Source of the DNA: Candidatus Moraniibacteriota bacterium
GTDB taxonomy: Bacteria; Patescibacteriota; Minisyncoccia; Moranbacterales; UBA11712
Reading direction: 5' to 3'
Assembly: GCA_026396255.1 (NCBI GenBank)
Contig: JAPLXD010000006.1
Location: 1-58,341, forward strand
DNA length: 58,341 nt
Shown: piece by piece, positions 1,985 to 57,846 of the stretch
Layout of the letters: every line of letters starts with the position of its first letter
Position numbering within the stretch: position 1 is the stretch's first letter
Position numbers and translations under genes: made by a program
Notes under the pieces: model-generated
The model's input: only the letters and a program-made list of their open reading frames with translations
Told to the model about the DNA's origin: nothing
The model's database searches: none

Positions 1985-3780
1985 TTTTTATCCTCAATTT
2001 CTTTCTGGATCTTTTCCAAAAACTTCTCAACCTTTATTGCGCCGAGATCGCCTTTTTCGCGGTCGCGAACGGCGACGGATTTGGCTTTCATTTCTTTCTC
2101 GCCGATGATGAGCATATAATTCACTTTCTGGTTCTGGGCGGTGCGGATTCTTTTTCCGAGGGATTCGCCGGTTTTGTTCATCGCGACACGAATATTTTTT
2201 TCTTGGAGTTTTTTCAAAATTTCTTTTCCGAATTTTTCAAACTTTTCCGAAACGGGAATGACTTCAACTTGAACAGGGGAGAGCCAAAGCGGGAAATGGC
2301 CGGCGGTTTGTTCAACTAAAAAGGCGAAAAATCGGTCGAATGATCCCATAATCGCCTTATGGATAATAACCGGCCTTTCTTTCTTTCCTTTTTCGTTTGT
2401 GAACTCGAGATTAAATCGTTCAGGCATATAGAAATCCATTTGAACAGTTGCGATTGAATCTTCTTTTCCGTGGACATTTTTGATTTGAACGTCAATTTTC
2501 GGTCCATAGAAAGCTGCTTCGCCGGCAACTTCTTCGAATTTTACTCCCGATTTTTTCAGGGCTGCGCGGGCAATTCGTGCCGATTCCTCCCAGAGCTTTC
2601 TGTTTTTTATGTCACCATATTTTTCCTTATCATTGAAATCGGGGAGTGATAGTCGAAACCAATAGCCTGTAATGTTGAAATCTTCGTAAACTTTTTTGAA
2701 TAAGCTTAAAACTTTTTCAAGCTCGCTCTGGCTTTGTTCATGCGAGCAATAAATATGAGAGTCATTTTGGGAAAAGCAGCGTGCCCGAATAAGTCCGGTG
2801 AGGACGCCCGATCTTTCAAAGCGATGCAGGAGACTGAAATCAGAATAGCGGACTGGCAAATCGCGATAGCTTTTCGAATCATTGCGAAACATAATGTGAT
2901 GATGGGGGCAATTCATTGGTTTCAAATAATATCTTTCTCCCTCAATATCAATTGGGTTATACATATCATCCTTGTAGTGTGCCAAGTGGCCGGATTTTTT
3001 GTAAAGATTTTCATGCGCGAGAACGGGCGTGTATACAAAATCATAGCCGTTTTGTTTTTCCAATTCGTACATATAATCCTCGAGCTTTTTCCGAATATAA
3101 GCGCCGTTGGGAAGCCAAAGTGGCAATCCTTTTCCCACTTCATCCGAAATCATAAATAGTTTCAGATCTTTCCCGAGTTTTCGATGATCTCTTTTTTCCG
3201 CTTCGGCCATCATGGCAAGATATTGCCGGAGTTCTTTGTCGGTTGCGAAAGCTACGCCATAGATGCGCTGGAGCATCTTGTTTTTTTCGTCGCCCTTCCA
3301 GTAGGCGCCGGAAATCTTGGTGAGCTTGAAAGCCTTCGGGCTTATTTCTCCGGTCGAATCGATGTGAGGACCAGCGCAAAGATCGACAAAATTGCCGGTT
3401 CGATAAATCGAAACAGTTTTTCCGCCAGAGGCGGATCCGCCTTTGGCGGATGCTCTACTACTTTCCTCTTTTGCGATATCTTTGATCAATTCGACCTTCA
3501 GCGGCTGCGCGGCTTTTTTGAAATCTTCCAAAGCTTCGGCAATCGGCAGATTGGCTTTTTCAAATTTGAAATTGGCCTTGATGATGCTCTGCATTTTTTC
3601 TTCGAGGATCGCGAGATCTTCAGGAATCAGTGTACGCGGGAGGTCAAAGTCATAATAGAATCCGTTTTCGATGGCCGGTCCGATGCCAAAGCGGGCGTCG
3701 GGGAACATTTCAAAAACGGCTGCGGCCAGGACGTGGGAGAGGGAGTGCCGAAGAAGCTCTGTTTTTGGTTGTTTTTGCAT
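1981..3780 (-). CDS. thrS: threonyl-tRNA synthetase, short form without the N-terminal TGS domain
   Basis: 599 aa. Starts at the SAD-like block LLRHSLSHVLAAA, with class II core (YLKPMNCPHH, FSLLHRFERSG) and an anticodon-binding C-terminus. Its stop overlaps the miaB start by 4 nt (ATGA). Confidence 0.93.
   Translation of the reverse strand: MQKQPKTELLRHSLSHVLAAAVFEMFPDARFGIGPAIENGFYYDFDLPRTLIPEDLAILEEKMQSIIKANFKFEKANLPIAEALEDFKKAAQPLKVELIKDIAKEESSRASAKGGSASGGKTVSIYRTGNFVDLCAGPHIDSTGEISPKAFKLTKISGAYWKGDEKNKMLQRIYGVAFATDKELRQYLAMMAEAEKRDHRKLGKDLKLFMISDEVGKGLPLWLPNGAYIRKKLEDYMYELEKQNGYDFVYTPVLAHENLYKKSGHLAHYKDDMYNPIDIEGERYYLKPMNCPHHHIMFRNDSKSYRDLPVRYSDFSLLHRFERSGVLTGLIRARCFSQNDSHIYCSHEQSQSELEKVLSLFKKVYEDFNITGYWFRLSLPDFNDKEKYGDIKNRKLWEESARIARAALKKSGVKFEEVAGEAAFYGPKIDVQIKNVHGKEDSIATVQMDFYMPERFNLEFTNEKGKKERPVIIHKAIMGSFDRFFAFLVEQTAGHFPLWLSPVQVEVIPVSEKFEKFGKEILKKLQEKNIRVAMNKTGESLGKRIRTAQNQKVNYMLIIGEKEMKAKSVAVRDREKGDLGAIKVEKFLEKIQKEIEDKK
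3421..3450. repeat. 30-bp near-perfect palindrome in frame in thrS
   Basis: TCCGCCAGAGGCGGATCCGCCTTTGGCGGA, encoding part of SAKGGSASGG. A second copy lies at 13741-13770. Confidence 0.85.
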
Positions 3781-9201: not shown

Positions 9202-10479
9202 ATGAAAGGTTATATTTCGAAAATAACAATATATTTTTGTTTGCTTGTTTTGTTTTTGGCGTCCGATGTATCTTTGGCTGCCCAGAATGATGCCCAGCAG
9301 CAGGATTTGAAAATGAAAATAAATATTCTGCGGAACCAGATCCAGGAATATCAAAAAGAAATTGATGTCAAAAATAACCAAGCAGAAACTCTTCAGGGCG
9401 ATATCGACGCTATCGAAAAAGACATTGCAAAAATAAAGCTTGAAATGCAGGAGACTCAGTTGGTGATCCAAGGCCTTGATCTTGAGATCGCGGACAAAGA
9501 AGCGGGCATAGCCGCGATGCAGAAAGAGGTGGAGGCCAAAAAGAAAGTCCTCGCGCAATTTATGCAGGAATTGTATGAAAACGGCAATGCTACGTCCGTG
9601 GAATTGGCCCTGGGAAACAATACTTTTTCAGACTACTTTTTTCAGGCGGACAGCCTCGAATCATTTGAGGAGAGGACGAGGGAGATATATGACCGGTTCG
9701 TTTTTCTTCGTGAAGGTATCCAGAAAGAAAAGGATGATCTACTCTCTCAAAAAGAAGAACAGATGAATCTCAGAGCGATGCAAAACGACCAGCAAAATAC
9801 TTTGGATTCGCAAGAGCAGGCAAAAAATTCTCTTTTGGGCAAAACAAAGAATGACAAGCAGGCGCTTTCGGATCAGATGGGAAAATTGCAAGATCAGCTG
9901 AACGCTTTGCAGGCGCTCGGTGAGCCGATCAATATTGATGAAGCAATCAGCGCCGCCAAATATGCATCCGGTTTCACGCATGTTGCGCCGGAATTTTTGC
10001 TCGGCGTCTTGCGCGTCGAATCGGGACTTGGAACGAATGTCGGGGGAGGGAGATATAAAACTGACATGAATCCGGCCCAGTGGGACACTTTCAAAAAAAT
10101 TTGCGGTGAACTCGGAGTTGATCCGAACAGCGTGCCGGTGTCGCGCCGGGCTTGCTACAATTCAAATTCGAAGGACGGATGCGGGGGATGGGGAGGAGCG
10201 ATGGGGCCGGGACAATTCATGCCGACCACCTGGCTCGGATACAAAAGCAAGGTGGAAAAACTCACAGGGAATAGTCCGGCGAACCCGTGGGATCTCAAGG
10301 ACTCCCTTGTCGCGATGGGTCTCAAGCTGGTGGCGGTGAACGGCGTGACGGCGGGCGACCGGTCGGCTTGGGCGAAAGCGGCGGCGATGTATCTCGCGGG
10401 CGGCAACTGGGAAAACTATTCGTGGTATTCGGATCGGGTGTTGTCTTATGCCGACGGATTCAAAAAAATAATGAAATAA
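9202..10479 (+). CDS. secreted coiled-coil protein with C-terminal SLT_2-type lytic transglycosylase domain
   Basis: Signal/anchor sequence, a ~200-aa Q/E/K-rich coiled coil, then ESGLG...GAMGPGQFMPTTW. Confidence 0.75.
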   Translation: MKGYISKITIYFCLLVLFLASDVSLAAQNDAQQQDLKMKINILRNQIQEYQKEIDVKNNQAETLQGDIDAIEKDIAKIKLEMQETQLVIQGLDLEIADKEAGIAAMQKEVEAKKKVLAQFMQELYENGNATSVELALGNNTFSDYFFQADSLESFEERTREIYDRFVFLREGIQKEKDDLLSQKEEQMNLRAMQNDQQNTLDSQEQAKNSLLGKTKNDKQALSDQMGKLQDQLNALQALGEPINIDEAISAAKYASGFTHVAPEFLLGVLRVESGLGTNVGGGRYKTDMNPAQWDTFKKICGELGVDPNSVPVSRRACYNSNSKDGCGGWGGAMGPGQFMPTTWLGYKSKVEKLTGNSPANPWDLKDSLVAMGLKLVAVNGVTAGDRSAWAKAAAMYLAGGNWENYSWYSDRVLSYADGFKKIMK

Positions 10480-10805: not shown

Positions 10806-12122
10806 GTGAGCTCAATTCAAGAAATGCAAATACCTGCTAAATGGGTGGCAGAACGAATAGGGGTGAGCTCAAGAGGAAGAACGAAAATATTTTCGCTGGT
10901 TTTTGTTTCGGTGATAATTTCGGCAAGCGCGCTTGTTGTCTCCTCATCCGGAAAAACGGTTGCTTCCGACATTACCGTGGAAAAAGTGATCGAGCTTACC
11001 AATGCATCAAGGGCGGAGGCGGGCGAGAGCGCGCTTACTGTGAACTCGAAATTGTCCCAGGCGGCCGAAACGAAAGCTTCGGATATGGTTGCCAACAATT
11101 ATTTTTCGCATACTTCTCCGGCCGGGGCGACGCCCTGGAGCTGGATCCAAAAAGAAAACTACGACTATATCTATGCCGGAGAGAACCTGGCAATGGATTT
11201 TCATGCAGCGGAAAATATGGAAGAGGCTTGGATGGCCAGTCCCACGCATCGGGCGAACATACTTAACCAGAATTATCACGAGATGGGAACGGCAGTGAAA
11301 GAGGGGATTATAAACGGCCACGATACAATTCTGGTCGTTGTGATGTTCGGCTCGGGAGACAAAAATTCGTCAAGCTTGAATGACGTAAACAAGAAAACAT
11401 TGAATCCGGAAAAGCGTGTGGACAGCGGGAAAAATTTCCCAACGCTGTCCGTGGGAGAAGAGGGGAGGAGCCAAAGCCTTTTCGAACAGCCGACGATCAC
11501 CAGTCCGCAATCGGGGGAAATATTTTCCGGTAGCGAGGTCAAAATCACTGGACGGGCTAAGCCGGAAGAAACTGTCGCAATTTTCGACAATGGAAATTTT
11601 GTCGGTTCAGCGGTTGCAGATCCGGATGGATGGTTTTCTTTTTCGGAGACAGGATTGGCTGAAGGGACACATGGCCTTGCTCTGCAAAATAAAAACGTAT
11701 TCGCGGATGCAACAACCAATTTCTTTGTTGACCGGGAAAAGCCGAATGTCGATTTCCGCCTCTATGCCGACCAAAACGATCCAAGCCGATTTTTTCTTGA
11801 AGCAAGCGCTGACAAAAACAATTGTACGTTCCAGTTCAACGGAGAGTCGAGGCCTGTTCTGGGAGAAGATAAGGCTTTGTTTTCCGTTGACGCGGAAAAG
11901 TCATCCATCATTCTGCGAGTGTCGGATCAGGCAGGAAACAAAAATTTCCGACAGATCAATCTGGCCAACTACTATCCGGGCAGCGGCAACAGTGGAAACA
12001 ATATTTCAGACAAGCTGGCAGCGCTTATGTCCGCGCCAGAAAATATCTTCGCGAATGATCCAGGGAGAGACGCGATGAAGAACAATTTGGGACTAGCGAT
12101 GGGAGGGATAAATAATTATTAA
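10806..12122 (+). CDS. membrane-anchored CAP/SCP (PR-1-like) domain protein with Ig-like C-terminal region
   Basis: CAP blocks YFSHTSPAG..W, GENLA and SPTHRANIL. An alternative GTG start at 10863 follows a 12-nt direct repeat GGGTGAGCTCAA. Confidence 0.8.
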   Translation: MSSIQEMQIPAKWVAERIGVSSRGRTKIFSLVFVSVIISASALVVSSSGKTVASDITVEKVIELTNASRAEAGESALTVNSKLSQAAETKASDMVANNYFSHTSPAGATPWSWIQKENYDYIYAGENLAMDFHAAENMEEAWMASPTHRANILNQNYHEMGTAVKEGIINGHDTILVVVMFGSGDKNSSSLNDVNKKTLNPEKRVDSGKNFPTLSVGEEGRSQSLFEQPTITSPQSGEIFSGSEVKITGRAKPEETVAIFDNGNFVGSAVADPDGWFSFSETGLAEGTHGLALQNKNVFADATTNFFVDREKPNVDFRLYADQNDPSRFFLEASADKNNCTFQFNGESRPVLGEDKALFSVDAEKSSIILRVSDQAGNKNFRQINLANYYPGSGNSGNNISDKLAALMSAPENIFANDPGRDAMKNNLGLAMGGINNY

Positions 12123-28426: not shown

Positions 28427-29902
28427 ATGCTTGACGAAATAAAGGAAATAAAACTGAAAAAACTGGAAAATCTGCGAAAAGCGGGTCTTGATCCGTATCC
28501 GGAAAAAACCAGCCGGACGATGGTGAACAAAGAAGCGTTGGAAAAATTTGATGAATTGCAGAGCAAAGAAATAATCTTGGTTGGAAGAGTGAAGTCTCTC
28601 CGTCCGATGGGCGGGTCGGCTTTTGCCCACATTGAGAATGAATCAGGGAAAATCCAGATTTTTTTGAGCAAAAAAAACATTGATCCGGAAAAATATAAGC
28701 TTTTTGTCGATTCGATCGAGCTTGGCGATTTTGTCGAGGTCAAGGGGAAATTATTCAAGACCAAAACGGAAGAAATCACCCTTGAAGTGTCGGATTGGAA
28801 AATATTGAGCAAAAGTCTGGCACCCGTGCCGACGGAACATTTTGGGGTGAAAGATACGGAAGAACTTCTGCGCCGGCGCTATCTGGATCTCATGATGAAT
28901 TCCGAAACGCGCGAGCTTTTCCGCAAGAAAAACATTTTTTGGCAAACAGCCCGAACTTTTCTCGCTAAAAAAGGCTTTTTGGAAGTGCAGACTCCCGTTC
29001 TTGAAAATATTCCCGGCGGAGCCGAAGCGGAGCCGTTCGTCACGCATCACAACGCGCTTGATCGCGACTATTTCATGCGCATTTCGCTGGAATTGCCGCT
29101 CAAAAGGCTGCTGGTCGGCGGATACGAAAGAGTCTTCGAGATCGGCCGGGTTTTTCGCAACGAGGGCATTGACAGAGAGCATTTGCAGGAATATGACACG
29201 CTCGAATATTATGAAGCCTATGCGGATCTGAAAAAGGGGATGAAGCTGGTTGAAAAATTGTTCAAGGAAATTGTGAGGAATATCTTGGAGATCGAATCTC
29301 CAAGGGGAGATTCGATCTCCCTTGCAACGGAATACGAGGGAAACAAAATCAATTGGGGAGAAAAATGGGAAACAAAAGACTATTTCAAGCTTCTCAAGCA
29401 AGAGACGGGAATCGATCTCGATAAAGAAATTTCTGTCGCCGATCTCCAGAAGAAAGCGGACGAGTTGGGGATCAAATATGAAAAAAACTATGGCAAGGGG
29501 CGGATGATCGATACGATATACAAAAAAACCGTGCGGCCGAAATTGATCCAACCTTGTTTTTTGGTCGGCCATCCGGTCGAAGTATCGCCGCTGGCCAAAA
29601 AAGATCCCAAAGACCCCCGAAAAGTTTTGCGCCTTCAGGTAATTGCCTGCGCCTCGGAGCTTGGAAACGGTTTTGCGGAGCTGAACGACCCGGTTGACCA
29701 GCGCGCCAGATTTTCCGACCAAATGAAACTTCGCGCCGAAGGGGACACAGAAGCGCAAATGCTCGATGAAGATTTTGTCGAAGCGCTTGAATATGGCATG
29801 CCTCCAGCGTTTGGTTTCGGCTTTTCGGAAAGATTGTTTGCGCTTTTGATGAACAAATCGGTGCGAGAAACAGTCATCTTCCCGCCGATGAAAGAGAAAT
29901 AA
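28427..29902 (+). CDS. lysS: lysyl-tRNA synthetase, class II
   Basis: OB-fold N-domain, RVFRNEGIDREHLQEYDTLEYYEAY, and GFGFSERL. Confidence 0.95.
   Translation: MLDEIKEIKLKKLENLRKAGLDPYPEKTSRTMVNKEALEKFDELQSKEIILVGRVKSLRPMGGSAFAHIENESGKIQIFLSKKNIDPEKYKLFVDSIELGDFVEVKGKLFKTKTEEITLEVSDWKILSKSLAPVPTEHFGVKDTEELLRRRYLDLMMNSETRELFRKKNIFWQTARTFLAKKGFLEVQTPVLENIPGGAEAEPFVTHHNALDRDYFMRISLELPLKRLLVGGYERVFEIGRVFRNEGIDREHLQEYDTLEYYEAYADLKKGMKLVEKLFKEIVRNILEIESPRGDSISLATEYEGNKINWGEKWETKDYFKLLKQETGIDLDKEISVADLQKKADELGIKYEKNYGKGRMIDTIYKKTVRPKLIQPCFLVGHPVEVSPLAKKDPKDPRKVLRLQVIACASELGNGFAELNDPVDQRARFSDQMKLRAEGDTEAQMLDEDFVEALEYGMPPAFGFGFSERLFALLMNKSVRETVIFPPMKEK
29287..29320. repeat. twin-palindrome element in frame in lysS
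   Basis: GGAGATCGAATCTCC-aagg-GGAGATTCGATCTCC. Translated as EIESPRGDSIS. Confidence 0.9.
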
Positions 29903-30153: not shown

Positions 30154-31422
30154 ATGTTAGACATCAAATACATTCGGGAAAACAAGGACGCTGTGAAGAA
30201 AAATTGCGAACTGCGCAACATCAAGTGCGATGTTGGCCGGCTTTTGGAATTGGATGAGAAAAGGCGAAAACTGATCGTCGAAATAGGGGAACTAAAAGAA
30301 AAGAAGAATGAAATTAACGATAAAATGAAATCGGGCGAGGATAAAGAAAATTTGATTGTCGAAGGGAAAAAAATAAAAGAAGATTTGGACAAGCTTAATC
30401 CGGAATTTGAGGAAACTGAAAAAGAATACAAAAAACTGATTATCCAGATTCCCAATATGACGCATCCGGATTCGCCGATCGGGAAAGATGATTCGGAAAA
30501 CAAAGAAATCGAGAGATATGGCGAACCGGCAAAATTCAATTTCGAACCGAAAGGACACGAGGAGTTGATGAAAAATTTGGATCTGATTGACTTTGAGCGC
30601 GGGGCGAAAGTGGCCGGAGCCAAATTCTATTTTCTCAAAAACGAGGGAGTACTTCTTGAACAAGCTTTGATAAATTATGCCTTGGATACGTGCATTCAGG
30701 AAAAATTCACGCCTTTCACAACTCCAGATCTCGCCAAAGACAAAATTCTGCTTGGAGTCGGTTTCAATCCGCGGGGGCAGGAATCGCAAATATATTCCGT
30801 GGAAGATACTGATCTGAATTTGGTTGGAACGGCCGAAATCACGATGGGCGGATATCATATGGACGAAATTATTAATGAGGAAAAATTGCCCTTGAGGTAT
30901 GTCGCTCTTTCGCATTGTTTTCGGACAGAAGCGGGGAGCTATGGACGGCACAGCGCGGGTTTGTATCGCGTGCATCAATTTTCGAAAGTGGAAATGTTTG
31001 CCTATACTTTGCCGGAAAAATCGGAAGAAATGCATACCTATTTCAAAGAAATGGAAGTGAAAATTTTCAAAGGACTTGGGATTCCGTTTCGAGTGGTGGA
31101 TATTTGCACGGGAGATCTGGGCGGACCGGCGTATCGCAAATATGACCTCGAAGCTTGGATGACTAGTCGCAACGGGTGGGGCGAGGTGACATCAACATCA
31201 GACACGACGGATTATCAAGCAAGAAGATTGAACATCAAAGTCGAAAGAGAAGATGGCAAAAAAGAATATCTGCATATGCTCAACGGAACCGCGATTGCTG
31301 TTTCACGAACCCTGATCGCCATCATCGAAAACGGGCAGCAAGCCGACGGGTCGGTCGTCATTCCGGAAGTTTTGCGCAAGTGGATGCCGGGGAATATGGA
31401 AGTTATCAAGAAGAATGGATAA
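30154..31422 (+). CDS. serS: seryl-tRNA synthetase
   Basis: Coiled-coil arm, FRTEAGSYGR, and GTAIAVSRTLIAIIEN. Confidence 0.95.
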   Translation: MLDIKYIRENKDAVKKNCELRNIKCDVGRLLELDEKRRKLIVEIGELKEKKNEINDKMKSGEDKENLIVEGKKIKEDLDKLNPEFEETEKEYKKLIIQIPNMTHPDSPIGKDDSENKEIERYGEPAKFNFEPKGHEELMKNLDLIDFERGAKVAGAKFYFLKNEGVLLEQALINYALDTCIQEKFTPFTTPDLAKDKILLGVGFNPRGQESQIYSVEDTDLNLVGTAEITMGGYHMDEIINEEKLPLRYVALSHCFRTEAGSYGRHSAGLYRVHQFSKVEMFAYTLPEKSEEMHTYFKEMEVKIFKGLGIPFRVVDICTGDLGGPAYRKYDLEAWMTSRNGWGEVTSTSDTTDYQARRLNIKVEREDGKKEYLHMLNGTAIAVSRTLIAIIENGQQADGSVVIPEVLRKWMPGNMEVIKKNG

Positions 31423-32614
31423 GAAAATCAATCTTTCACCAATAAAAGAAATGGAACTCCGGGCATCGCGCATTCCCGGAGTTGTTTCGCTCGCCCAAGG
31501 CGTGCCGTCTTTTGACACGCCCGAGCCGATCAAGCGGGCGGCCATCGAGGCAATCGAGAAGGGAAAAGTGGCCAAATATTCACTCTCACCCGGCCTTCTG
31601 GAGTTACGCGAGGTGATCGCGCACAATCTTGAAAAAGAAAACAAGTTTTATGACTTTGAAGAAGAAGTTATCGTGACGGCCGGGTCGATCGAAGCGATCA
31701 CGGCGACGATGCTGGCAATTCTTTCTCCGGGAGATGAAGTTTTGATTCCCGATCCGACATATACATCCTATCAGCCGGCTATCAAGGTGGCGGGTGGGGT
31801 GCCGGTCTTTGTCCCGCTGGATGAAAAGAAGCACTGGGCGTTTGATATTGCGGAATTGGAAAAAAGAATCACTCCAAAAACGAAAGCCCTGCTTTTTTGC
31901 AATCCGAACAATCCGACGGGGACGATTTTCACGCGCAATCAGCTTCACGCGGTGGCGCAGCTCGCGATCAAGCACAATTTCTATATTCTGAGCGATGAAG
32001 TTTACAAAGATTTTGTTTTTGAGGAAAATGGAGGTTCGACCTCCACGGGGAGGTCGAACCTCCAACGTTTGTACTCCCTCGCCCAGATGCGCGGGATTCG
32101 GGACAGATTGATCTATATCTTCTCTTTTTCCAAAGCCTACGCGATGACGGGCTGGCGGATTGCGTATCTTGCAACTCATCACGATCTCGCGAAGAAGATC
32201 CTCGGCGTGCACGACGCGCTGGTCACGTGCGCTCCCGTAGTCTCACAGTATGCAGCTCTTGCGGCTCTCGAAATGGCGGACGAGGAACTGGCGAAATATC
32301 ACGCGATATATAAAAACAGGCGGGATCTGATCTGCCGGCGGCTCGATAAGCTGAAAAATATATTTGAATATCAAAAACCGGACAGTGCCTATTTCGTTTT
32401 TCCGCGCATCAAAGAAGATATTTTGCAAAAAATCACTCCAAGTGGCGGTTCAAAGGAATTTGCGATAGAATTGCTGGAGAAGGCCAAAGTGGCGACGGTT
32501 CCCGGATCAGCCTTCGGTCCGGTCGGGGAGAATCATATCCGGATGTGTTTTGGGCGCAGTGAAGAGGATATCAACTTGGCGTTTGATCGGATGGAAAAAT
32601 TTTTCTCAAAATAA
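31415..32614 (+). CDS. class I/II PLP-dependent aminotransferase (aspartate-aminotransferase-like)
   Basis: NPNNPTG and SFSKAYAMTGWRIAY (PLP lysine). Overlaps the serS stop by 8 nt. Confidence 0.88.
   Translation: MDKKINLSPIKEMELRASRIPGVVSLAQGVPSFDTPEPIKRAAIEAIEKGKVAKYSLSPGLLELREVIAHNLEKENKFYDFEEEVIVTAGSIEAITATMLAILSPGDEVLIPDPTYTSYQPAIKVAGGVPVFVPLDEKKHWAFDIAELEKRITPKTKALLFCNPNNPTGTIFTRNQLHAVAQLAIKHNFYILSDEVYKDFVFEENGGSTSTGRSNLQRLYSLAQMRGIRDRLIYIFSFSKAYAMTGWRIAYLATHHDLAKKILGVHDALVTCAPVVSQYAALAALEMADEELAKYHAIYKNRRDLICRRLDKLKNIFEYQKPDSAYFVFPRIKEDILQKITPSGGSKEFAIELLEKAKVATVPGSAFGPVGENHIRMCFGRSEEDINLAFDRMEKFFSK
32030..32063. repeat. twin-palindrome element in frame in the aminotransferase gene
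   Basis: GGAGGTTCGACCTCC-acgg-GGAGGTCGAACCTCC. Translated as GGSTSTGRSNLQ. Confidence 0.9.
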
Positions 32615-41032: not shown

Positions 41033-43564
41033 ATGGATGCTTATAGTTTAAATTTAATATTATACCCTCTGGCCGGGCTGGCCGCGATTGTCTGTTTTGC
41101 CTCGGGCGCTCTTTTGGTATTCAAAAGTTTCATGGGTTTTCGCGGTCTGGTCACGCGGTCGCTCAATATGGATCTCGACGTGGTGAAAGTGAGCCGGCCG
41201 ATGAAGCGGGAAGCGCAAGGCGAACAGCAGCAACAGCCCAAATCGGAAAAAGAATTGATCTCGGTGATGGAGCATCTTTTCGCGAGTCTCGGGAACATCA
41301 AAGAAAAATCAAACATTTGGCATCGAATTATATATGGAGACGCGGTCGTAGCGCTCGAAATGGCCAATCCCGCCGACAATGACGAAATTTCCTTCTACGT
41401 CGGGGCGCCGAAAAAATTCATCAACATTGTCGAGCGGCAGATTCACAGCTTTTATCCCAAGGCCTCGATTGAACGGGTGAAAGACTACAATATTTTTTCT
41501 CCCGGCAGTTTCACAGCGGCTTCAAGCCTCACTCTCAAGGATAAGCATCATTTTCCGATCCGGACATATCAGACACTGGAAGCCGATCCTCTCAACAACA
41601 TCACGAACGTGCTTGGAAAGTTCGACGAGAAAAAGGAAGGGGCGGCCATCCAGCTTCTCATGAAACCGGCGCGGAGCGGCTGGCGGCAAAAAGGGAAGCA
41701 AGTCGCCCACAAAATGCAGCAGGGCCGGCAACTTTCGGATGTCAAAAGGGATACGATCGTGCGCCAGGTCGGCCGCGGACTGTTGAGCCTTTTTCATCAG
41801 AAAAAAGACAAACAGGAAGATATTTTGAAGCAAAACAAAGATGTCATCCAACTTACACCGGAAGAGCAGGAGGTGGTGAAAAAAATCGAAGGCAAAGCCG
41901 GAAAATCCGGTTTCAGCGTGAATATCCGTCTGGTGGCTTCGGCGCTCACTCAGGAGCGCTCGGAAGTGATTCTTTCCGAGCTCGAAAATGGCTTTATACA
42001 ATATGAAAATCCGGGACTAAACAGCTTCAAGGTTTTGCGCGAAGACAAGCGGCGTCCGAAGAATATCGCTTTTGATTTCATCTTCCGCAACTTTCGGAGC
42101 GACCAAAGTTTTGTTCTGTCTTCAGAGGAAATTGCCAGCGTTTTTCATTTTCCGCTGTTCTCGACCGAAACGCCTAAGATCGCCTGGCTCAAGGCCCGCA
42201 CGGCCGCCCCGCCTTCAAACATTTCGAAAGATGGCATCACGCTCGGCTTCAACGACTATCGCGGAGTGGAAACGGTGATTCGGCACGCAGAGGACGATCG
42301 ACGGCGCCACTTCTATGTCGTCGGACAAACCGGAACCGGAAAATCAACGATGATGGAAGAAATGGTGAAACAGGACATCAAAAACGGAAAAGGCGTGTGC
42401 GTTATCGATCCCCACGGAGAGTTTGTTGATCATGTGCTTGAATGTGTTCCGAAAGAACGGGCGGAGGACGTGATCTATTTCGATCCGGCGGACATGGAGC
42501 GGCCGTATGGGCTCAATATGCTTGAATTTGACCAAAACAAGCCGGAGCAAAAAACTTTTGTCATCAATGAAATGATCAATATCTTTGACAAGCTCTATGA
42601 TCTGCGCCAGACGGGCGGCCCGATGTTTGAACAATATATGCGCAACGCGGCCCTGCTCGTGATGGAACACCCGGATTCCGGTTCGACCTTGATGGAGATT
42701 CCGCGAGTCCTGGCCGATGAAGAATTTCGGCATTTGAAACTGTCGCATTGCACCAATCCGGTCGTCAAAAATTTCTGGGAAAAAGAAGCGGAAAAGGCGG
42801 GCGGGGAAGCGGCTCTCGCCAATATGGTCCCGTATATCACTTCGAAACTCACCCAGTTTATTTCGAACGATATGATGCGGCCGATCATCGCTCAGGAGAA
42901 ATCGACAATCAACTTTCGCCAGGCGATGGACAACCAGCAAATTATTCTAGTGAACCTTTCAAAGGGAAAGATTGGCGAAATCAACGCCAATCTCCTGGGA
43001 ATGATCATCGTTGGAAAAATATTAATCTCGGCACTTTCGCGGGTGGATATTTCAGAAAGCGAGCGCAAAGATTTTTATCTCTATATCGATGAATTTCAAA
43101 ACTTCACGACCGATTCGATCGCCCAGATTCTTTCGGAAGCACGAAAATATCGGCTGGCTCTAGTCATTGCTCATCAATTCATCGCCCAACTCAAAGAAGA
43201 AATTTCCAAGGCGGTTTTTGGAAACGTGGGATCGATTTGCTCATTTCGGGTGGGGGCGGAAGACGCGGAATTTCTGCAAAAGCAGTTTGAGCCGGTATTC
43301 GATGCGAATGATCTCATGAACGTGGACAATCACAACTGTTTCATGAAACTTTTGATCGCGAGCCAGGTCGCTTCGCCCTTCAATATGAAAACCTATCCGC
43401 CGACGGCCGGCTCGAAAGAGATCGCGGAAGCCATCAAGGAGCTTTCCAAATTGAAGTACGGGCGCAATCGTGATATAGTGAATGAAGAGATCTTGAAAAA
43501 ATCAAGTTTTGTTTCCGCTCCCGCTTCGGCTGACGCTTTTGATATGGGAGAAAAACCGATGTAA
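41033..43564 (+). CDS. membrane-anchored FtsK/HerA-superfamily ATPase, TraD/VirD4 (coupling-protein)-like
   Basis: N-terminal TM helix, Walker A VVGQTGTGKST, IDPHGEF, Walker B LYIDEFQNF, and ARKYRLALVIAHQFIAQL (TraG-D_C-like). Confidence 0.75.
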   Translation: MDAYSLNLILYPLAGLAAIVCFASGALLVFKSFMGFRGLVTRSLNMDLDVVKVSRPMKREAQGEQQQQPKSEKELISVMEHLFASLGNIKEKSNIWHRIIYGDAVVALEMANPADNDEISFYVGAPKKFINIVERQIHSFYPKASIERVKDYNIFSPGSFTAASSLTLKDKHHFPIRTYQTLEADPLNNITNVLGKFDEKKEGAAIQLLMKPARSGWRQKGKQVAHKMQQGRQLSDVKRDTIVRQVGRGLLSLFHQKKDKQEDILKQNKDVIQLTPEEQEVVKKIEGKAGKSGFSVNIRLVASALTQERSEVILSELENGFIQYENPGLNSFKVLREDKRRPKNIAFDFIFRNFRSDQSFVLSSEEIASVFHFPLFSTETPKIAWLKARTAAPPSNISKDGITLGFNDYRGVETVIRHAEDDRRRHFYVVGQTGTGKSTMMEEMVKQDIKNGKGVCVIDPHGEFVDHVLECVPKERAEDVIYFDPADMERPYGLNMLEFDQNKPEQKTFVINEMINIFDKLYDLRQTGGPMFEQYMRNAALLVMEHPDSGSTLMEIPRVLADEEFRHLKLSHCTNPVVKNFWEKEAEKAGGEAALANMVPYITSKLTQFISNDMMRPIIAQEKSTINFRQAMDNQQIILVNLSKGKIGEINANLLGMIIVGKILISALSRVDISESERKDFYLYIDEFQNFTTDSIAQILSEARKYRLALVIAHQFIAQLKEEISKAVFGNVGSICSFRVGAEDAEFLQKQFEPVFDANDLMNVDNHNCFMKLLIASQVASPFNMKTYPPTAGSKEIAEAIKELSKLKYGRNRDIVNEEILKKSSFVSAPASADAFDMGEKPM

Positions 43565-44358: not shown

Positions 44359-45564
44359 TTATTTCAGTCTCCCAATTATCTTATTTTTCTCACTATATCC
44401 AATTTTCATCTTGGACGCAAGCGTTTGCATAGTGGCAATTGTTTGGTCATATGTCGGGCGATCGACGGGGTAGGGGATGAAATCTTTTCCGCCGTGGGCG
44501 AAGGAATAACGGGCCGGATCTTCATAGGAAGCTTTCGCGCCGTAAATAACTTCCGCTGTCAGCGCCAAAGCTCTGATGGTCTTTGGCCCGACGCCTTTCA
44601 AAGATAAAAGCTGTTCATAATTTTTCGGCTTGACTACATTCACTTCGTATAATATTTTTTCCAAATACTTGCTTTTGGTGAAATCCTCCGTGATGACGGG
44701 CAACACCTTGAAATCGCGGTCATGCAGGTGTATTTTGGTGAGTTCTTGATTCTCGTTTCCAACCGAGATCACTTCGCTTTGAGCTGTTGAGTGGTCGCGC
44801 AGAATGGAGATCGGATCTCCATCGGGGAGATCCGATCTCCGAGGAGTCGCGTATTTGCTCAATAATGCTAGATCTTTCATGAGAGTATTATAGCTTCCTT
44901 GAACGAGCTCTGTGCTGATTTTTTGGGTGTTTTCGCTTTCTCTGGCGGTCATATTGAGCCCGGTGTGCTGGCCGTCCGAAATAATCCCGCTGTGCGGTTC
45001 AATCACTAGGTTCTTTACTTCGTCCGAGAACCAGTGATAGCGTCGCGCCGTCACCTCTTTTTCGTTCATGCCTTGTTGAACGACGGCCCACGTGCCGTTG
45101 CGTGAGAAAAAGAAGCAGTGATGATAAATCTGGAACCCGTCCTGGACGAGGGAAGAATCGACTTTCGCCGCCATCCGGGAATTGTATTCGAGCGAATTTA
45201 TTTTTTCCTGCGAGAGTTCGGCTCGCGCGCCGAAGAGTGAAATTTGCTCCGGAGTTTTGAGCGACGCTTTGCCTTTCCCGCCACAAATATATATTCCCAA
45301 ATCTCTTTCCTCGCCGCGGATAGCCTCTTTCAAAGCCGCGGTTAAAATAGTGATGAGTCCCGACGCGTTCCAGTCAAAAGCGAGCACCGTTCCGAGCGCC
45401 TGAAACCAGACCGGATCGGCGATCCGTTTCACAAACTCATCCGGCCCATATTCGGCAATGATGACCCGTGACATCTCCCGTCCCAGTTTCACCATCCGTT
45501 CGAACAGCCATTTGGGGCACTTGCCATAGTCAAGAGTGAAGGTGGCAATTCCGCGCTTGAACAT
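44359..45564 (-). CDS. DUF763-family protein with helix-hairpin-helix-like C-terminal motif
   Basis: N-terminus GKCPKWLFERMVKLG...DPVWFQALGTVLAFDWNASG is typical of DUF763 as I recall it. LLSLKGVGPKTIRALAL is HhH-like. Confidence 0.7.
   Translation of the reverse strand: MFKRGIATFTLDYGKCPKWLFERMVKLGREMSRVIIAEYGPDEFVKRIADPVWFQALGTVLAFDWNASGLITILTAALKEAIRGEERDLGIYICGGKGKASLKTPEQISLFGARAELSQEKINSLEYNSRMAAKVDSSLVQDGFQIYHHCFFFSRNGTWAVVQQGMNEKEVTARRYHWFSDEVKNLVIEPHSGIISDGQHTGLNMTARESENTQKISTELVQGSYNTLMKDLALLSKYATPRRSDLPDGDPISILRDHSTAQSEVISVGNENQELTKIHLHDRDFKVLPVITEDFTKSKYLEKILYEVNVVKPKNYEQLLSLKGVGPKTIRALALTAEVIYGAKASYEDPARYSFAHGGKDFIPYPVDRPTYDQTIATMQTLASKMKIGYSEKNKIIGRLK
44816..44850. repeat. twin-palindrome element in frame in the DUF763 gene
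   Basis: GGAGATCGGATCTCC-atcgg-GGAGATCCGATCTCC. Translated on the minus strand as RRSDLPDGDPIS. Confidence 0.9.
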
Positions 45565-49975: not shown

Positions 49976-50031
49976 AAGGTTCGACCTTTCCCTTGTCGGC
50001 TGTCACCTCCAATTCCTCAAGGTCGAACCTT
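49976..50031. repeat. 56-bp element with inverted termini (copy 2), 10 nt upstream of the uvrA ATG
   Basis: Same ends and same length as 691-746, with a different 17-nt core. Confidence 0.8.
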
Positions 50032-53023: not shown

Positions 53024-54307
53024 ATGAATTACGATTTAAGAATTAAGAATAAAATATTCAACCTTCCCAAATCTCCCGGCGTGTACGAATTTCGTGATAA
53101 ACAAGGGAAAATTCTTTATATCGGGAAAGCGACATCGCTCAAGGATCGGGTAGGGAGTTATTTTCGCTCCCAAAGTTCAACTTTAGGAGCGCCTAAAGTT
53201 GAACTTTTAGTGTCCCAAATCGCCGACATCAAAATTCATGAAACGGATTCGGTGCTGGAAGCTTTGATCTTGGAATCCAATCTCATCAAAAAGCACCAGC
53301 CGAAATATAATGTGATGGCGAAAGACGACAAGAGTTTCGGCTATTTCGTGATCACCCGCGCACCAAAGCACAGCTTGGTGCGGGGCAAGGCTTCAGAAGA
53401 ATTTCCGCGAGTTGTTATTCTGAGAAAAACAAACTTAGGAACTGTATCGGCAAAAAGAATTTATGGTCCGTATTTATCAAAGCGACAGATGGAGATCGCA
53501 TTAAAAATAATTCGTAAAATATTTCCCTTTCACTCCATCAAAGCCAAAACGGAAAAGGGTTGTCTTGATTTCCAGATCGGGCGGTGTCCGGGACCGTACG
53601 CGGATGCGATCAGCAAAAAAGACTATCTTAAAAATATCCACGGGATAGAGATGATTTTACAGGGGAAAAAGAAAGGCTTGCTCACCGAGCTCAAAAAACA
53701 GATGAGAACATATTCAAAGAATAGCGAATTTGAAAAGGCGGCCGAAGCGCGGAATCGGATCTTCGCGCTTGAGCATATTCGGGACGTGGCGTTGATATCA
53801 AAAGATATGGCTGGAGATTCGATCTCCACAAGGGAGATCGAATCTCCATTACGTATCGAAGCGTATGATATTTCAAACATCGGCGGAGATTTTGCCGTAG
53901 GCTCCATGGCAGTCTTTAAAAACAACCATCCGAACAAGAGCCAGTACCGGAAATTCAAGATAAAAAACGTGTCCGGAGTTGATGATGTGGCAATGATGCG
54001 CGAAATGCTGCGACGGCGTTTCCAAAACGATTGGCCTTTGCCGGATATCATTTTTGTCGATGGGGGAAAGGGACATCTCAATATGGCGGAGAATGTCGTC
54101 AGCGAGTTCGGCCATAATATCCCCGTTGTCGGCGTCGCCAAAGGGCCGACGCGCAAAAAACTGGATATGTATCACGGCAAAGAAGCTTTGATTTTCCAAA
54201 ACATCATCAGCGATGAAAAATTGGTCGAAAGAATTCGCAACGAAGCCCACCGCTTTGCGATCAGCTATCACAAGAAACTACGGAGAAAAAATTGGAAAGA
54301 CAAATAA
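53024..54307 (+). CDS. uvrC: excinuclease ABC subunit C, short form lacking the C-terminal (HhH)2 domain
   Basis: GIY-YIG (GVYEFRDKQGKILYIGKA), UVR (EFEKAAEARNRIFALEHI), and endonuclease-domain block IEAYDISNIGG. 427 aa. Confidence 0.85.
   Translation: MNYDLRIKNKIFNLPKSPGVYEFRDKQGKILYIGKATSLKDRVGSYFRSQSSTLGAPKVELLVSQIADIKIHETDSVLEALILESNLIKKHQPKYNVMAKDDKSFGYFVITRAPKHSLVRGKASEEFPRVVILRKTNLGTVSAKRIYGPYLSKRQMEIALKIIRKIFPFHSIKAKTEKGCLDFQIGRCPGPYADAISKKDYLKNIHGIEMILQGKKKGLLTELKKQMRTYSKNSEFEKAAEARNRIFALEHIRDVALISKDMAGDSISTREIESPLRIEAYDISNIGGDFAVGSMAVFKNNHPNKSQYRKFKIKNVSGVDDVAMMREMLRRRFQNDWPLPDIIFVDGGKGHLNMAENVVSEFGHNIPVVGVAKGPTRKKLDMYHGKEALIFQNIISDEKLVERIRNEAHRFAISYHKKLRRKNWKDK
53172..53207. repeat. 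36-bp palindrome in frame in uvrC
   Basis: AAAGTTCAACTTTAGG-agcg-CCTAAAGTTGAACTTT. Confidence 0.9.
53355..53385. repeat. miniature CCCGCGCACCAA/TTGGTGCGGGG inverted repeat in frame in uvrC
   Basis: It shares the right arm plus flank TTGGTGCGGGGCAAG with the intergenic CCCCGCACC elements. Confidence 0.7.
53813..53847. repeat. twin-palindrome element in frame in uvrC
   Basis: GGAGATTCGATCTCC-acaag-GGAGATCGAATCTCC. Translated as GDSISTREIESP. Confidence 0.9.
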
Positions 54308-56001: not shown

Positions 56002-56167
56002 AAATAGTATTTGGTATTTTGTATAAAGTATTAAGTATTTTTTTGTGTCTAAAACAATTATCGAAAATATAAAAAGGCCTAAAAAAGCCCTAAAAACTGT
56101 TGCTCGGGTAGGGATTCGAACGTCTCCGCCCGGGGCGGACAGGCGCCGGCCGCTGTTCAAAACAATG

Positions 56168-56239
56168 CTGGGGCGGTAGGATTCGAACCCACGAATGGGG
56201 GCTTCAAAGGCCCCTGCCTTACCACTTGGCGACGCCCCA
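56168..56239 (-). tRNA. tRNA-Gln (anticodon UUG)
   Basis: The minus strand reads TGGGGCGTCGCCAAGTGGTAAGGCAGGGGCCTTTGAAGCCCCCATTCGTGGGTTCGAATCCTACCGCCCCAG. It folds as a cloverleaf with the U1:A72 pair typical of bacterial tRNA-Gln. CCA is not encoded. Confidence 0.9.
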
Positions 56240-56247
56240 ATGATTCC

Positions 56248-57846
56248 TCATACTATTTTTCCTCCGAAGATATCCACCGCCTCTTGCATCAGGCTTTTTT
56301 TCTCTTTGAAATTAGGATACTCCTCGGAAAGTTCTTTTTCGGTGACAGGCTTCAGTTTCAAGACAACGCCCGTTATCTTATCAATCGCTTTCTCGATTGT
56401 CAATCGGTTGGTCATTTCAACAAGCTTTTCTTTATAAAAATCGTATTTCGTCTTGAGAATGAGGTAATTTCCGTCAATGAGCGCGGGGCTCGACATCTTG
56501 AGAACGGAGGAAAGAGAATGGTTGTAGCTTTTGAGCGATTCGATGATTTCGGACCAATTGGAGGTGATGAGGTCGATATCGGCAGATGTATTTTTGCTTG
56601 CTGATTTATTTTTTTCGGCTGCAGGCGGAATATTTTGGACTTGGCTATCTTTGGACATCCGATGTCCAAAAACATCGCTTGAAGCATTTTTTTGAACGAT
56701 TTCTTTTTTTACTGGAGGATCATCTTTCACGGGTATTATGGACATCGGATGTCCTGATTGTTTGGCGGCAAGTTTCGCAATGCTGACTTCAAGAAAAAGC
56801 TGAGGGATTGGGCTGGATTTGAATTTTTCCGTATTTTCTTGGAGGATATTGATAAAATTCAGAATTTCTTCGGTTTCGATGTTTGTGATTTGCTTTTTGA
56901 TCTGCTCGAGGCGTTCTTTGGTGATTTCATAGGAAAGTTTTTGGCCGAGGTCGGGGTTTATTTTCAAAACCAGCATTTGGCGCAGATAGTTCAGCAAAGA
57001 TTTCGCAAAATTTTTGAAATCGATTCCCATTTCCCGCAGCTCGCCGATTTTCGCAAATACCTCGGCGTATTTTTTTTGGATCGCAAGATCGACAAACTCG
57101 GCCGTGAATTTTTCCGAAACGGTTCCCAAAATGAATTCCACTTCTTTGACGGTTATTTTTTTGTCTTCAAGGGCAATGACTTGACCGAGCAGGCTTTCGG
57201 CATTGCGCATTCCGCCTTCTGAAGAAGAGGCGATGATCTCGAGCGCCTCGCGGTCGACTTTCACTTTTTCGAGCTTGGCGATTTCTTCGAGGCGGTTGAT
57301 GATTTCTTCAATCGTGAGACGGGTGAAATCAAAACGCTGGACGCGGGACAAAATCGTCTCCGGAATTTTGTGAACCTCGGTTGTGGCCAAAATGAAAACG
57401 ACATTCGTGGGCGGTTCTTCGAGGGTCTTTAGTAGAGCATTAAATGCACCACCCGAGAGCATATGAACTTCGTCGATGATATAGACCTTGTATTTAAGGG
57501 ATGAAGGTGGCAATTTGACTGTTTCGCGCAGTTCGCGGATATTGTCCACGCCCGTGTTGGAAGCCGCGTCGATCTCGATGATATCTAGCGCGCGATTGTC
57601 GAGAATATTCTGGCACGAATCGCATTTGAGGCAGGGCTCGCCGTTTTTGAGATGCTGACAATTGATCGTCTTCGCAAAAATCCTCGCAATCGAAGTTTTT
57701 CCCGTCCCGCGGGGTCCGGCAAAAAGATAGGCTTGCCCAATCCGCCCCGTTTTCACGGCGTTTTTGAGCGTCTGGACAACGTGCTTTTGTCCGATCAATT
57801 CGGAAAAAGTGACTGGACGATATTTTCGATAGAGAGTGGTGCTCAT
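56248..57846 (-). CDS. dnaX: DNA polymerase III gamma/tau subunit
   Basis: GPRGTGKTS, a zinc module CQHLKNGEPCLKCDSC, DEVHML and SRVQRF. Confidence 0.92.
   Translation of the reverse strand: MSTTLYRKYRPVTFSELIGQKHVVQTLKNAVKTGRIGQAYLFAGPRGTGKTSIARIFAKTINCQHLKNGEPCLKCDSCQNILDNRALDIIEIDAASNTGVDNIRELRETVKLPPSSLKYKVYIIDEVHMLSGGAFNALLKTLEEPPTNVVFILATTEVHKIPETILSRVQRFDFTRLTIEEIINRLEEIAKLEKVKVDREALEIIASSSEGGMRNAESLLGQVIALEDKKITVKEVEFILGTVSEKFTAEFVDLAIQKKYAEVFAKIGELREMGIDFKNFAKSLLNYLRQMLVLKINPDLGQKLSYEITKERLEQIKKQITNIETEEILNFINILQENTEKFKSSPIPQLFLEVSIAKLAAKQSGHPMSIIPVKDDPPVKKEIVQKNASSDVFGHRMSKDSQVQNIPPAAEKNKSASKNTSADIDLITSNWSEIIESLKSYNHSLSSVLKMSSPALIDGNYLILKTKYDFYKEKLVEMTNRLTIEKAIDKITGVVLKLKPVTEKELSEEYPNFKEKKSLMQEAVDIFGGKIV
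56651..56754. repeat. pair of GGACATC(C/G)GATGTCC palindromes bracketing ~70 bp in the dnaX linker region
   Basis: TTGGACATCCGATGTCCAA at 56651-56669 and GGACATCGGATGTCC at 56740-56754 are reverse complements of each other. Confidence 0.8.

Follow-up and report, generated by a model that had tools for sequence, protein, structure and literature searches.

The stretch of DNA analysed here (hereafter the window) comprises 58,341 nt of a Candidatus Moraniibacteriota genome (contig JAPLXD010000006.1), in which a small twin palindrome recurs at many places. A twin consists of two short arms, each of which is itself of the form X-n-X', the second arm being the reverse complement of the first. At least nine twins (core of 33-36 bp) were found, mostly within genes, and together with one uncertain relative they are hosted by a MiaB-like radical-SAM gene (two copies), the genes for ThrRS, LysRS, an aminotransferase, a DUF763 protein, UvrC (two copies) and DnaX, and the 5' leader of uvrA. 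The other open reading frames (ORFs) of the window are housekeeping ones: FtsW, L25, MreB (twice), MreC, PBP2, RRF, RseP, GreA, SerRS, a Mur ligase, FtsQ, UvrB, UvrA, a TrwB/VirD4-like ATPase and others. By position, the elements are:

691-746, MiaB-like radical-SAM gene (542-1984, minus strand): long-spacer member AAGGTTCGACCTT-30 nt-AAGGTCGAACCTT, in a linker directly past the part that aligns to solved MiaB
1018-1055, same MiaB-like gene: 38-bp perfect palindrome AAGGTTCAACCTT-AGCTGTACAGCT-AAGGTTGAACCTT, peptide QRFNLSCTAKVEP
3421-3450, thrS (1981-3780, minus strand): relative of uncertain membership, TCCGCC-NNN-GGCGGA twice with zero spacer and one central mismatch, peptide SAKGGSASGG
29287-29320, lysS (28427-29902, plus strand): GGAGATCGAATCTCC-AAGG-GGAGATTCGATCTCC, the rare TCGAA-first isomer, peptide EIESPRGDSIS
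32030-32063, class I/II aminotransferase gene (31415-32614, plus strand): GGAGGTTCGACCTCC-ACGG-GGAGGTCGAACCTCC, peptide GGSTSTGRSNLQ
44806-44840, DUF763 gene (44359-45564, minus strand): GGAGATCGGATCTCC-ATCGG-GGAGATCCGATCTCC, peptide RRSDLPDGDPIS
49976-50031, 5' leader of uvrA, intergenic: long-spacer member AAGGTTCGACCTT-30 nt-AAGGTCGAACCTT
53172-53207, uvrC site 1, in the GIY-YIG domain: AAAGTTCAACTTT-AGGAGCGCCT-AAAGTTGAACTTT, peptide QSSTLGAPKVEL
53813-53847, uvrC site 2, in a linker (gene 53024-54307, plus strand): GGAGATTCGATCTCC-ACAAG-GGAGATCGAATCTCC, peptide GDSISTREIESP
56653-56667 and 56740-56754, dnaX (56248-57846, minus strand): split pair GGACATCCGATGTCC / GGACATCGGATGTCC with 72 nt between, in a variable linker, arms reading GHPMS and GHRMS

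A preliminary description of this DNA, made from the sequence alone, had taken five of these copies for one family, which is real and not due to chance: the pattern GGAG-N7-CTCC-N3-7-GGAG-N7-CTCC matched four times in the window and not once in 100 dinucleotide-preserving shuffles, and in all four strict twins the second arm is the exact reverse complement of the first. Two further scans, an unbiased one for perfect inverted repeats and another for self-complementary arms paired with their own reverse complement, brought back the same four twins along with the split dnaX pair, and they also turned up four additional copies of this architecture with AAGG or AAAG stems (691-746, 1018-1055, 49976-50031 and 53172-53207). 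The positions given earlier for the lysS, aminotransferase and uvrC copies hold, while the DUF763 copy lies ten bases before the 44816-44850 first assigned to it, and the dnaX pair, although real, has the exact arm limits listed above. The peptides that had been quoted are correct, and all five copies then named do lie in ORFs; the statement that all copies do so fails for the element in the 5' leader of uvrA, a gene that truly begins with the ATG at 50042.

The central pentamer of all arms is T-Y-C/G-R-A (TTCGA, TTCAA or TCCGA and their complements), and at least five stem variants coexist within the 58 kb. Single arms of 4 bp + T-Y-S-R-A + 4 bp number 30 in the window, where 1.9 would be expected, and as 18 of the 30 lie within the nine twins, it is pairs of inverted arms, and not arms by themselves, that are enriched. 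The thrS repeat has a different stem and core, and it is uncertain whether it belongs to the same family; a perfect version of it was found in an intergenic position at locus L037 (2700-2729).

The twins belong to a family that extends far beyond this contig. We scanned one genome per species for 185,579 GTDB species with the strict motif GGAGRTYSRAYCTCC-N3-6-GGAGRTYSRAYCTCC and obtained 104 stretches, for 80 of which the lineage was tallied by record title; among these 80, at least 48 are named as Patescibacteria (Moran-, Sacchari-, Nealson-, Harrison-, Giovannoni-, Vogel- and Wolfebacteria, Paceibacterota and Parcubacteria) and 13 as Elusimicrobia. The spacer was 3, 4 or 5 nt long in 28, 37 and 37 copies, respectively, and single metagenome-assembled genomes (MAGs) hold several copies at unrelated loci. 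A relaxed scan over 1.8 Mb of loci from the Candidate Phyla Radiation (CPR) gave 161 twins (131 perfect, 22 with one mismatch and 8 with two) compared with none in shuffled DNA. As many as 96 of the 161 lie in a unique long ORF, whereas 41 (at least 25%) lie where no frame is open for 300 nt, so that the element is both genic and intergenic. CPR genomes typically have a noncoding fraction of about 10%, and the higher share of at least 25% outside long ORFs is what would be expected under purifying selection. Nine twins in 58 kb, as opposed to roughly a dozen in about 985 kb of lysS-anchored metagenome loci, make the lineage of the window unusually rich in them.

Relatives were compared both as loci (L-numbers) and as protein homologues (P-numbers), and the earlier claim of in-frame insertion into loops and linkers of essential proteins was borne out, with empty sites in sister genomes for the lysS, aminotransferase, DUF763 and uvrA-leader copies. 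The LysRS residues EIESPRGDS occur only in P0001, P0002, P0003 and P0008, that is in 4 of 120 homologues, and are absent from the other 116; relatives with 86-89% identity lack the nine-residue insert, as does Geobacillus LysRS (3A74). The net gain in lysS is +27 nt in the DNA alignment, and in an AlphaFold2 (AF2) model the insert lies in a coil (289-299) between a helix (268-288) and a strand (300-303). An identical twin stands in the aminotransferase gene of the window and of L002 (net +33 nt); L001, L003 and L004, although closer to the window, have an empty site. The DUF763 twin lies inside an insertion of +60 nt (20 aa) that L185 and L189 do not have, and the 56-nt element of the uvrA leader, absent from L185 and L191, sits between a conserved upstream box and the ATG at 50042. 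Both dnaX arms are missing in the dnaX gene of L189, and the MiaB-like protein has about 10 extra residues relative to MiaB 7MJZ, coinciding with the 1018-1055 element. At uvrC site 1 the cassette replaces an ancestral KNAHLDRPNIEP, with a net change of just +3 nt. Gains were seen on the other side as well: among the relatives, L137 has a twin in uvrA and L085 one in a glycosyltransferase gene, at places where the window has none. Gain and loss go in both directions.

It needs to be considered whether such palindromes are produced by assembly or amplification, in which they can form as chimeric artefacts, or whether a protein motif is selected at the peptide level, as the RGD in the lysS peptide might suggest. 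However, the same copies are present at the same positions, with frames intact, in independent JGI, ENA and NCBI assemblies, which effectively refutes this explanation; moreover, P0002 has KGD in place of RGD, and the peptides vary with the reading frame used. We find it scarcely credible. The reading that we favor, and hold to be true with slightly better than even confidence, is that of a new, very small repeat family, chiefly of Patescibacteria, which resembles the doublets of repetitive extragenic palindromic (REP) sequences.

The perfect symmetry of the twins, with paired changes in their arms, was another claim that stood up to comparison, also at one orthologous position across three lineages. 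Among the strict matches the arms are exact reverse complements in 97 of 106, though the pattern admits 32 variants per arm. At uvrC site 2, three differently stemmed twins stand at one orthologous position between common flanks and around an AnAAG spacer: GGAGATTCGATCTCC / GGAGATCGAATCTCC in the window, GGAGGTTCGACCTCC / GGAGGTCGAACCTCC in L187 (GGAGGT stem) and, with one mismatch, GGACATCCGATGTCC / GGTCATCGGATGTCC in L189 (GGACAT stem). The window and L187 differ in exactly the four positions that pair with each other in the long and in the short hairpins, and the divergence of this site equals the gene-average rate. Intermediate copies were found as well, with one of the four positions changed in L115, three in L084 and two in L108, where the long hairpin is perfect and the short hairpins are mismatched. 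These intermediates make the long hairpin appear to be the primary constraint, and in folding with DNA parameters it reaches -16.5 kcal/mol, compared with -8.3 kcal/mol for the two short hairpins.

Compensatory changes are a classic signature of RNA structure, and one might thus suppose that the twins act in mRNA, where they would be cleaved by RNase III, affect the stability of the transcript or make translation pause, and would be kept by selection on the folded RNA. The predicted hairpin is in fact very stable (-26.5 kcal/mol, z = -6.5), with the long form favored over two short ones, and GT pairing is reported in some REP families (PMC3733652). Yet where imperfect copies lie in genes of confident orientation, the transition-type mismatches counted along the sense strand comprise six A·C and one G·U, and because no G·U excess is seen on that strand, selection on mRNA structure was rejected. 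The sequence also reads alike on both strands, intergenic copies exist, no Rfam family was matched and sister species lack copies, so that we regard an mRNA-level role as very improbable. A known RNA family was dismissed separately, since Rfam searches at gathering thresholds, run on the window and on 12 loci with intergenic copies, returned tRNAs only. The same holds for a tRNA origin: the arms are T-arm-like (GGTTCGA), but their loop has 5 nt instead of 7, and ARAGORN found in the window only a tRNA-Gln at 56167-56239.

In 10 of 103 copies the palindrome runs at least 4 nt into the copy-specific flanks, compared with 0.4 expected, and such an extension is the product that hairpin-templated copying should leave. 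This observation also fits an explanation without any mobility, in which quasi-palindromes arise in place by template-switch mutagenesis under reduced repair and resemble each other through convergence on stop-free, codon-compatible sequence. The uvrC site 1 cassette agrees with it too, as it swaps an ancestral segment at near-equal length with about 51% identity in register (by hand count), its right arm being similar to the ancestral ATTGAGCTGA; symmetry is perfect with no preference for wobble pairs, and other, unrelated small palindromes occupy the same loops. On the other hand, the same 15-nt arms recur in over 100 copies, spread across unrelated genes and phyla. A long-spacer class, AAGGTTCGACCTT...AAGGTCGAACCTT, is present in five copies (window 691 and 49976, L012, and twice in L008), in all of which a small hairpin of variable sequence is enclosed by common interior ends, TCCCTT...AATTCCTC; these conserved ends likewise count against origin in place, as does a dispersed repeat of about 110 nt, described below, with a twin at its centre.

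The order of the arms bears on the same question. Reverse-complementing an entire element leaves the order of its arms unchanged, so that the two possible orders are distinct isomers. TTCGA-first and TCGAA-first isomers were counted 23 times and once, respectively, the lysS copy having the rare form, while TTCAA-first and TTGAA-first isomers are balanced (23 and 19). A bias of 23 to 1 argues for common descent or for a mechanism with left/right asymmetry, and against independent local origins, from which it would not be expected. On the whole, mutagenesis in place seems to us a rather improbable source of these copies. If the twins are instead a dispersed family, symmetry might be restored by hairpin-templated template switching or gene conversion, by selection through the mobilising enzyme, or by both.

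The ~110-nt repeat is intergenic and dispersed within one MAG (L101 1166-1279, L102 250-358 and L150 6596-6704), with a GGAGG twin at its centre. Further copies were seen in L146 (2269-2372, with a compensated TCCGA/TCGGA core) and L168 (5564-5667), and partial ones in L043 (1786-1845) and L051 (91-150). It had no Rfam match, and may represent a parent element, a composite one or else a small RNA gene.

The same sites are filled in different ways in different relatives. At the codon where the aminotransferase genes of the window and L002 have their GGAGG twin, L008 has a long AAGG-class element, and directly upstream of the site L010 carries an unrelated 60-nt multi-hairpin insert. The lysS site of L028 (67% identity) holds a GACAT-stem pair with a 21-nt interior. 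Both uvrC sites are hypervariable across 120 homologues, most of the variant peptides that were inspected back-translate, by eye, to twins with AAAGT, AACAT, AAGGT or AAGAT stems, and the states of both sites are scattered over the neighbour-joining tree. The cassette at uvrC site 1 differs by one base at most among the window, L190, L191 and L192, whose uvrC genes are 72-74% identical and, outside the variable sites, are not mutual closest relatives. When the window is compared with L190 and L192 in a sliding window, third-position identity is 0.79 at nt 60-330 of the gene and 0.44-0.47 elsewhere; cassette-free relatives give 0.60 in this tract and 0.54-0.56 outside. The mosaic tract (~270 nt) lies in the 5' part of uvrC (window 53024-53350) and has the site 1 cassette embedded in it, and the jump in identity indicates that homologous recombination carried this allele of the cassette from one lineage to another. 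Vertical inheritance alone was therefore rejected for uvrC site 1, as the carriers are not closest relatives and the tract accounts for the match between the window and L190/L192. Recombination was shown at this one locus only, the lysS and aminotransferase copies having neither raised flanking identity nor a recombination tract. The cassettes are nevertheless conserved there: that of lysS is identical or nearly so though gene-wide third-position identity is 0.60-0.68, and that of the aminotransferase gene is identical between the window and L002, with 0.67-0.88 nucleotide identity in 60-nt windows across the gene.

At lysS, the aminotransferase gene and uvrC site 1 the DNA of the cassette greatly exceeds synonymous sites in conservation, and cassette alleles travel by homologous recombination, which might also be expected of a DNA signal with a function for the host. 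Such a signal could be a binding or recognition site, for instance of a structure-specific DNA-binding protein, or an uptake or recombination signal of natural transformation. Selection, or a molecular drive powered by transformation, would keep it, and coding loops would do no more than tolerate it. The T-Y-C/G-R-A core is conserved across stems, and the hosts are rich in genes of DNA repair and replication (the uvrA leader, uvrC twice, dnaX). The uptake sequences of Neisseria and Haemophilus have a similar skew toward repair and replication genes. A like skew is reported for intragenic REPs (PMC3733652). However, several stem "dialects" coexist within one 58-kb window, the nearest relatives do without the sites with no apparent consequence, single arms barely exceed background, the enrichment being confined to inverted pairs, the strict motif gave just 104 stretches in the whole species scan, and uvrC site 2 diverges at the rate of its gene. 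We thus consider a host signal unlikely. Somewhat bolder, and in our opinion quite unlikely, is a self-perpetuating cassette system independent of any transposase, in which hairpin-templated synthesis would restore perfect four-fold symmetry and act together with natural transformation and short-patch recombination, the element perhaps favoring uptake or strand invasion. If this were true, cassettes would be driven, without a transposase, into the same permissive loops in essential genes of different CPR lineages by a DNA-level, gene-drive-like process specific to competent bacteria with reduced genomes.

The copies appear to be translated. Read directly, the arms are stop-free in all six frames, yet the frames are not used equally. 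Among 73 confidently coding twins of the GGAG class, the arms read GGSTS/GDSIS (frame a) 61 times, EVEPP/EIESP (b) 56 times and RRFNL/RRSDL (c) 29 times, and for twins with a 5-nt spacer the hydrophilic passage from a to b was seen in 20 cases, compared with one from b to c and four from c to a. This frame bias is a filter at the level of the peptide, and it is from its direction, toward hydrophilic peptides, that translation is deduced.

If the twins form a family of non-coding, REP-doublet-like elements, as we think more likely than not, their life would be as follows. The unit is two inverted mini-hairpins of 13-15 nt, each with a mostly purine-rich stem X, the core T-Y-C/G-R-A and X', spaced by 3-5 nt, by 8-10 nt in the GGAGCGCC type, or by 30-72 nt. 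It would be inserted at many unrelated sites by a trans-acting mechanism encoded elsewhere, and in genomes that are ~90% coding the survivors would be found in intergenic leaders, surface loops and protein linkers, where only in-frame and mostly hydrophilic readings would persist, adding about 9-20 aa to a loop of the protein once translated. From then on the long hairpin would stay perfect, changes being coordinated at up to four positions, and gene segments bearing cassettes would be traded between related lineages by homologous recombination. For the mobilising activity, an enzyme of the HUH/Y1 type acting on single-stranded DNA (ssDNA) hairpins would be the obvious candidate. The element may be active or recently active, as the preliminary description supposed.

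A number of observations weigh against this reading. The strict motif is rare in most genomes, with ~10 copies or fewer per GTDB representative. No consistent target-site duplication accompanies the copies, since flanking direct repeats of 0, 1, 2 and 3 nt were seen in 67, 20, 14 and 2 of them, as by chance; the only flank signal is an excess of T at -1 and -2 (54% and 49% T), a weak NNTT|element preference. Net length changes (+27, +33, +60 and +3 nt) differ from the element length, and the codons adjoining the palindrome are not the same in filled as in empty alleles. These data thus give no proof of a simple cut-and-paste or peel-and-paste mode of insertion, and the filled alleles look like replacement cassettes or selected imprecise events; the earlier idea that a target duplication of 1-2 nt restores the frame has to be abandoned for want of a consistent duplication and in view of these net changes. 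Pfam scans of ~40 window ORFs revealed no transposase or recombinase domain, and IMG/VR viral contigs gave 0 matches. Finally, the lysS, aminotransferase and uvrC site 1 cassettes are near-identical in genes whose third-codon identity is 0.52-0.68, which a passively decaying selfish insertion does not explain; such conservation points to constraint, drive or very recent spread.

Two sources of mobility could be set aside on the same data: a phage vector, given the absence of IMG/VR matches, and a local transposase, given that the Pfam scans returned housekeeping genes only. The candidates named earlier, TnpA of IS200/IS605 or a REP-associated tyrosine transposase (RAYT), were not met with among those ORFs; the Y1_Tnp domain is absent from them, while no query aimed at TnpA or RAYT was run against the loci of relatives. 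The outer tetranucleotides are weakly biased (ACTT 12, CGTT 11 and GTTT 11 of 212).

The arm sequences were not found in the published literature searched, and searches for palindromic insertions or MITEs (transposable elements of the miniature inverted-repeat kind) in CPR/Patescibacteria returned nothing on point, so the sequence family itself appears to be undescribed. It was too strong, however, to state that no such family has been described, as REP dimers, their in-frame copies in genes and the Rickettsia palindromic elements (RPEs) are all on record (PMC3733652). The view of the twins as a structure-constrained element tolerated in essential proteins was largely right, apart from the frame-restoring duplication and the overstated lack of precedent. 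GTAG REPs, unlike CGTC REPs, are associated in genomes with a RAYT (Y1 transposase) gene. REP dimers (doublets of the REPIN-BIME type) are head-to-head or tail-to-tail stem-loops, 1-5 bp apart in some families, which fold separately or as one large stem-loop, and in some subfamilies the stem has changed on both sides in complementary fashion (Di Nocera et al. 2013, PMC3733652). According to the same paper, intragenic REPs lie notably in uvrA, uvrB, recBCD, dnaE and tRNA-synthetase genes, REP dimers and grouped repeats in ORFs encode 20-30 aa, and CGTC REPs, among which are RPE-4 and RPE-6 of Rickettsia, have no dedicated transposase (PMC3733652). Paired short stem-loops, dual folding (with the energies given above for the long and the two short hairpins) and the classes of host genes are thus points of likeness. 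The twins differ from REPs in that they have no terminal GTAG or CGTC tag, the feature that defines those superfamilies (within 8 nt of the ends of 106 symmetric copies, GTAG was found once, CGTC twice and GACG three times), in their units of 13-15 nt, doublet core of 33-36 bp, near-perfect palindromic arms and T-Y-C/G-R-A centre, in their Patescibacteria/Elusimicrobia hosts and mostly intragenic copies, and in that no RAYT was seen in the DNA available.

RPEs are palindromic repeats found in frame, in small reduced genomes, within genes that probably still encode functional proteins (PMC3733652). The twins share with them in-frame insertion and intact host genes. Classic RPE-1 is about 100-150 bp long, several times larger than a twin. 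The host of RPEs is alphaproteobacterial, and the twins are probably unrelated to them in sequence. The family thus works like a REP doublet or an RPE, yet appears to stand outside the described families. MITEs are 70-300 bp long and have terminal inverted repeats with a direct target-site duplication on their flanks, whereas the twins have a core of 33-36 bp, their longest members reaching 56-102 bp, and show no target-site duplication. Elements mobilised by the Y1 (HUH) TnpA of IS200/IS605 are alike in having hairpin ends that are recognised as ssDNA and in lacking a target duplication, and a distinction between left and right hairpins could produce the 23:1 isomer bias; on the other side, such elements insert 3' of a conserved tetra- or pentanucleotide, in place of which the twins show a weak NNTT bias, no TnpA was seen in the window, and TnpA substrates need no mutually complementary arms, which the twins have. 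DNA uptake sequences and uptake signal sequences (DUS/USS) are one 9-12-mer per lineage, with ~1 copy per kb and function as single copies, in contrast to at least five stems, arms near background and a rare motif here.

Fungal mitochondrial double-hairpin elements and the GC clusters of yeast are very short, consist of one or two hairpins and spread within compact genomes. Such organellar mobile palindromes are mostly non-coding, though sometimes they lie within coding or rRNA regions, and they are not known to have a transposase. Their sequences are unrelated and organellar, and the likeness serves as a lead rather than a test. The palindromic repeats of Volvox are organellar mobile palindromes as well (PMC2670323). 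Perfect inverted repeats of up to 284 bp occur in translated mitochondrial genes of Nematomorpha (PMC6649704), where, as in the twins, protein function and hairpin perfection are kept together; there, however, both arms encode conserved protein regions, and no dispersed family occupies variable loops.

Several other features were seen beside the twins. A second hairpin cassette, ACTCTCCCTTTA-C-TAAAGGGAGAGT, lies in the MiaB-like gene (window 1576-1600, peptide STLPLVKGEC) and is similar to CTCTCCCCCTTT-TGT-AAAGGGAGAG and CCCCCTTT-TCGA-AAGGGGG of the L192 uvrC linker (~2640-2720); cassettes of this type look like a second family of in-frame palindromes. Multi-hairpin in-frame inserts reading "PVK...NG", such as CCTGTTAAAT-CCCTGGTAAGACCAGGG-GCTTCGCAAAGCGAAGC-ATTTAACGGG, adjoin twin sites in L010 (~10060-10120, aminotransferase) and L002 (~10900-10940, lysS). 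The C-terminal part of the aminotransferase is a second hot spot, with "PPASLR...EALRAGG" inserts in L004, L008 and L016, whose peptides look palindrome-coded, and, at the same place in L159 (1434-1466), a GGAGG twin (PPMEVEPPK). Some LysRS homologues from Moranbacteria (P0014, P0020, P0026, P0030 and P0076), with lengths of 629-644 aa, have an extra Pfam domain, PF09391, that the LysRS of the window lacks.

The UvrC of the window (53024-54307), labelled by NCBI as "GIY-YIG nuclease family protein", has only 427 aa, compared with 400-470 aa in homologues of the clade, and no C-terminal HhH-type domain was detected in it. L185 and L186, with the closest uvrC relative, carry a free-standing 94-aa GIY-YIG ORF (9419-9703) between uvrA and uvrC. 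The window has none, its uvrA running to 53020 and its uvrC beginning at 53024. The TrwB/VirD4-like coupling ATPase (DUF87 + TrwB_AAD_bind; window 41033-43564, L185 1-1596) stands beside a DUF763-uvrB-uvrA-uvrC block and is conserved in relatives. The inverted repeat AAAACACCCGA-10 nt-TCGGGTGTTTT directly after the L25 gene (6749-6780) is by its look an ordinary intrinsic terminator, unrelated to the twins.

The twins extend in-frame palindromic repeats from Rickettsia, a few Proteobacteria and bacteria of the Planctomycetes-Verrucomicrobia-Chlamydiae (PVC) group to the CPR, where they seem to be a major source of small lineage-specific insertions in conserved housekeeping proteins. Small and regular as they are, they offer a tractable model both for the spread of REP-like elements that have no dedicated transposase and for the long-term upkeep of perfect hairpin symmetry, in which gene conversion and selection can be set against each other. 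The cassettes create patchy indels and local mosaicism in markers of CPR phylogeny such as aminoacyl-tRNA synthetases, UvrC and DnaX. Both the trimming of alignments and the inference of recombination can be misled by them.

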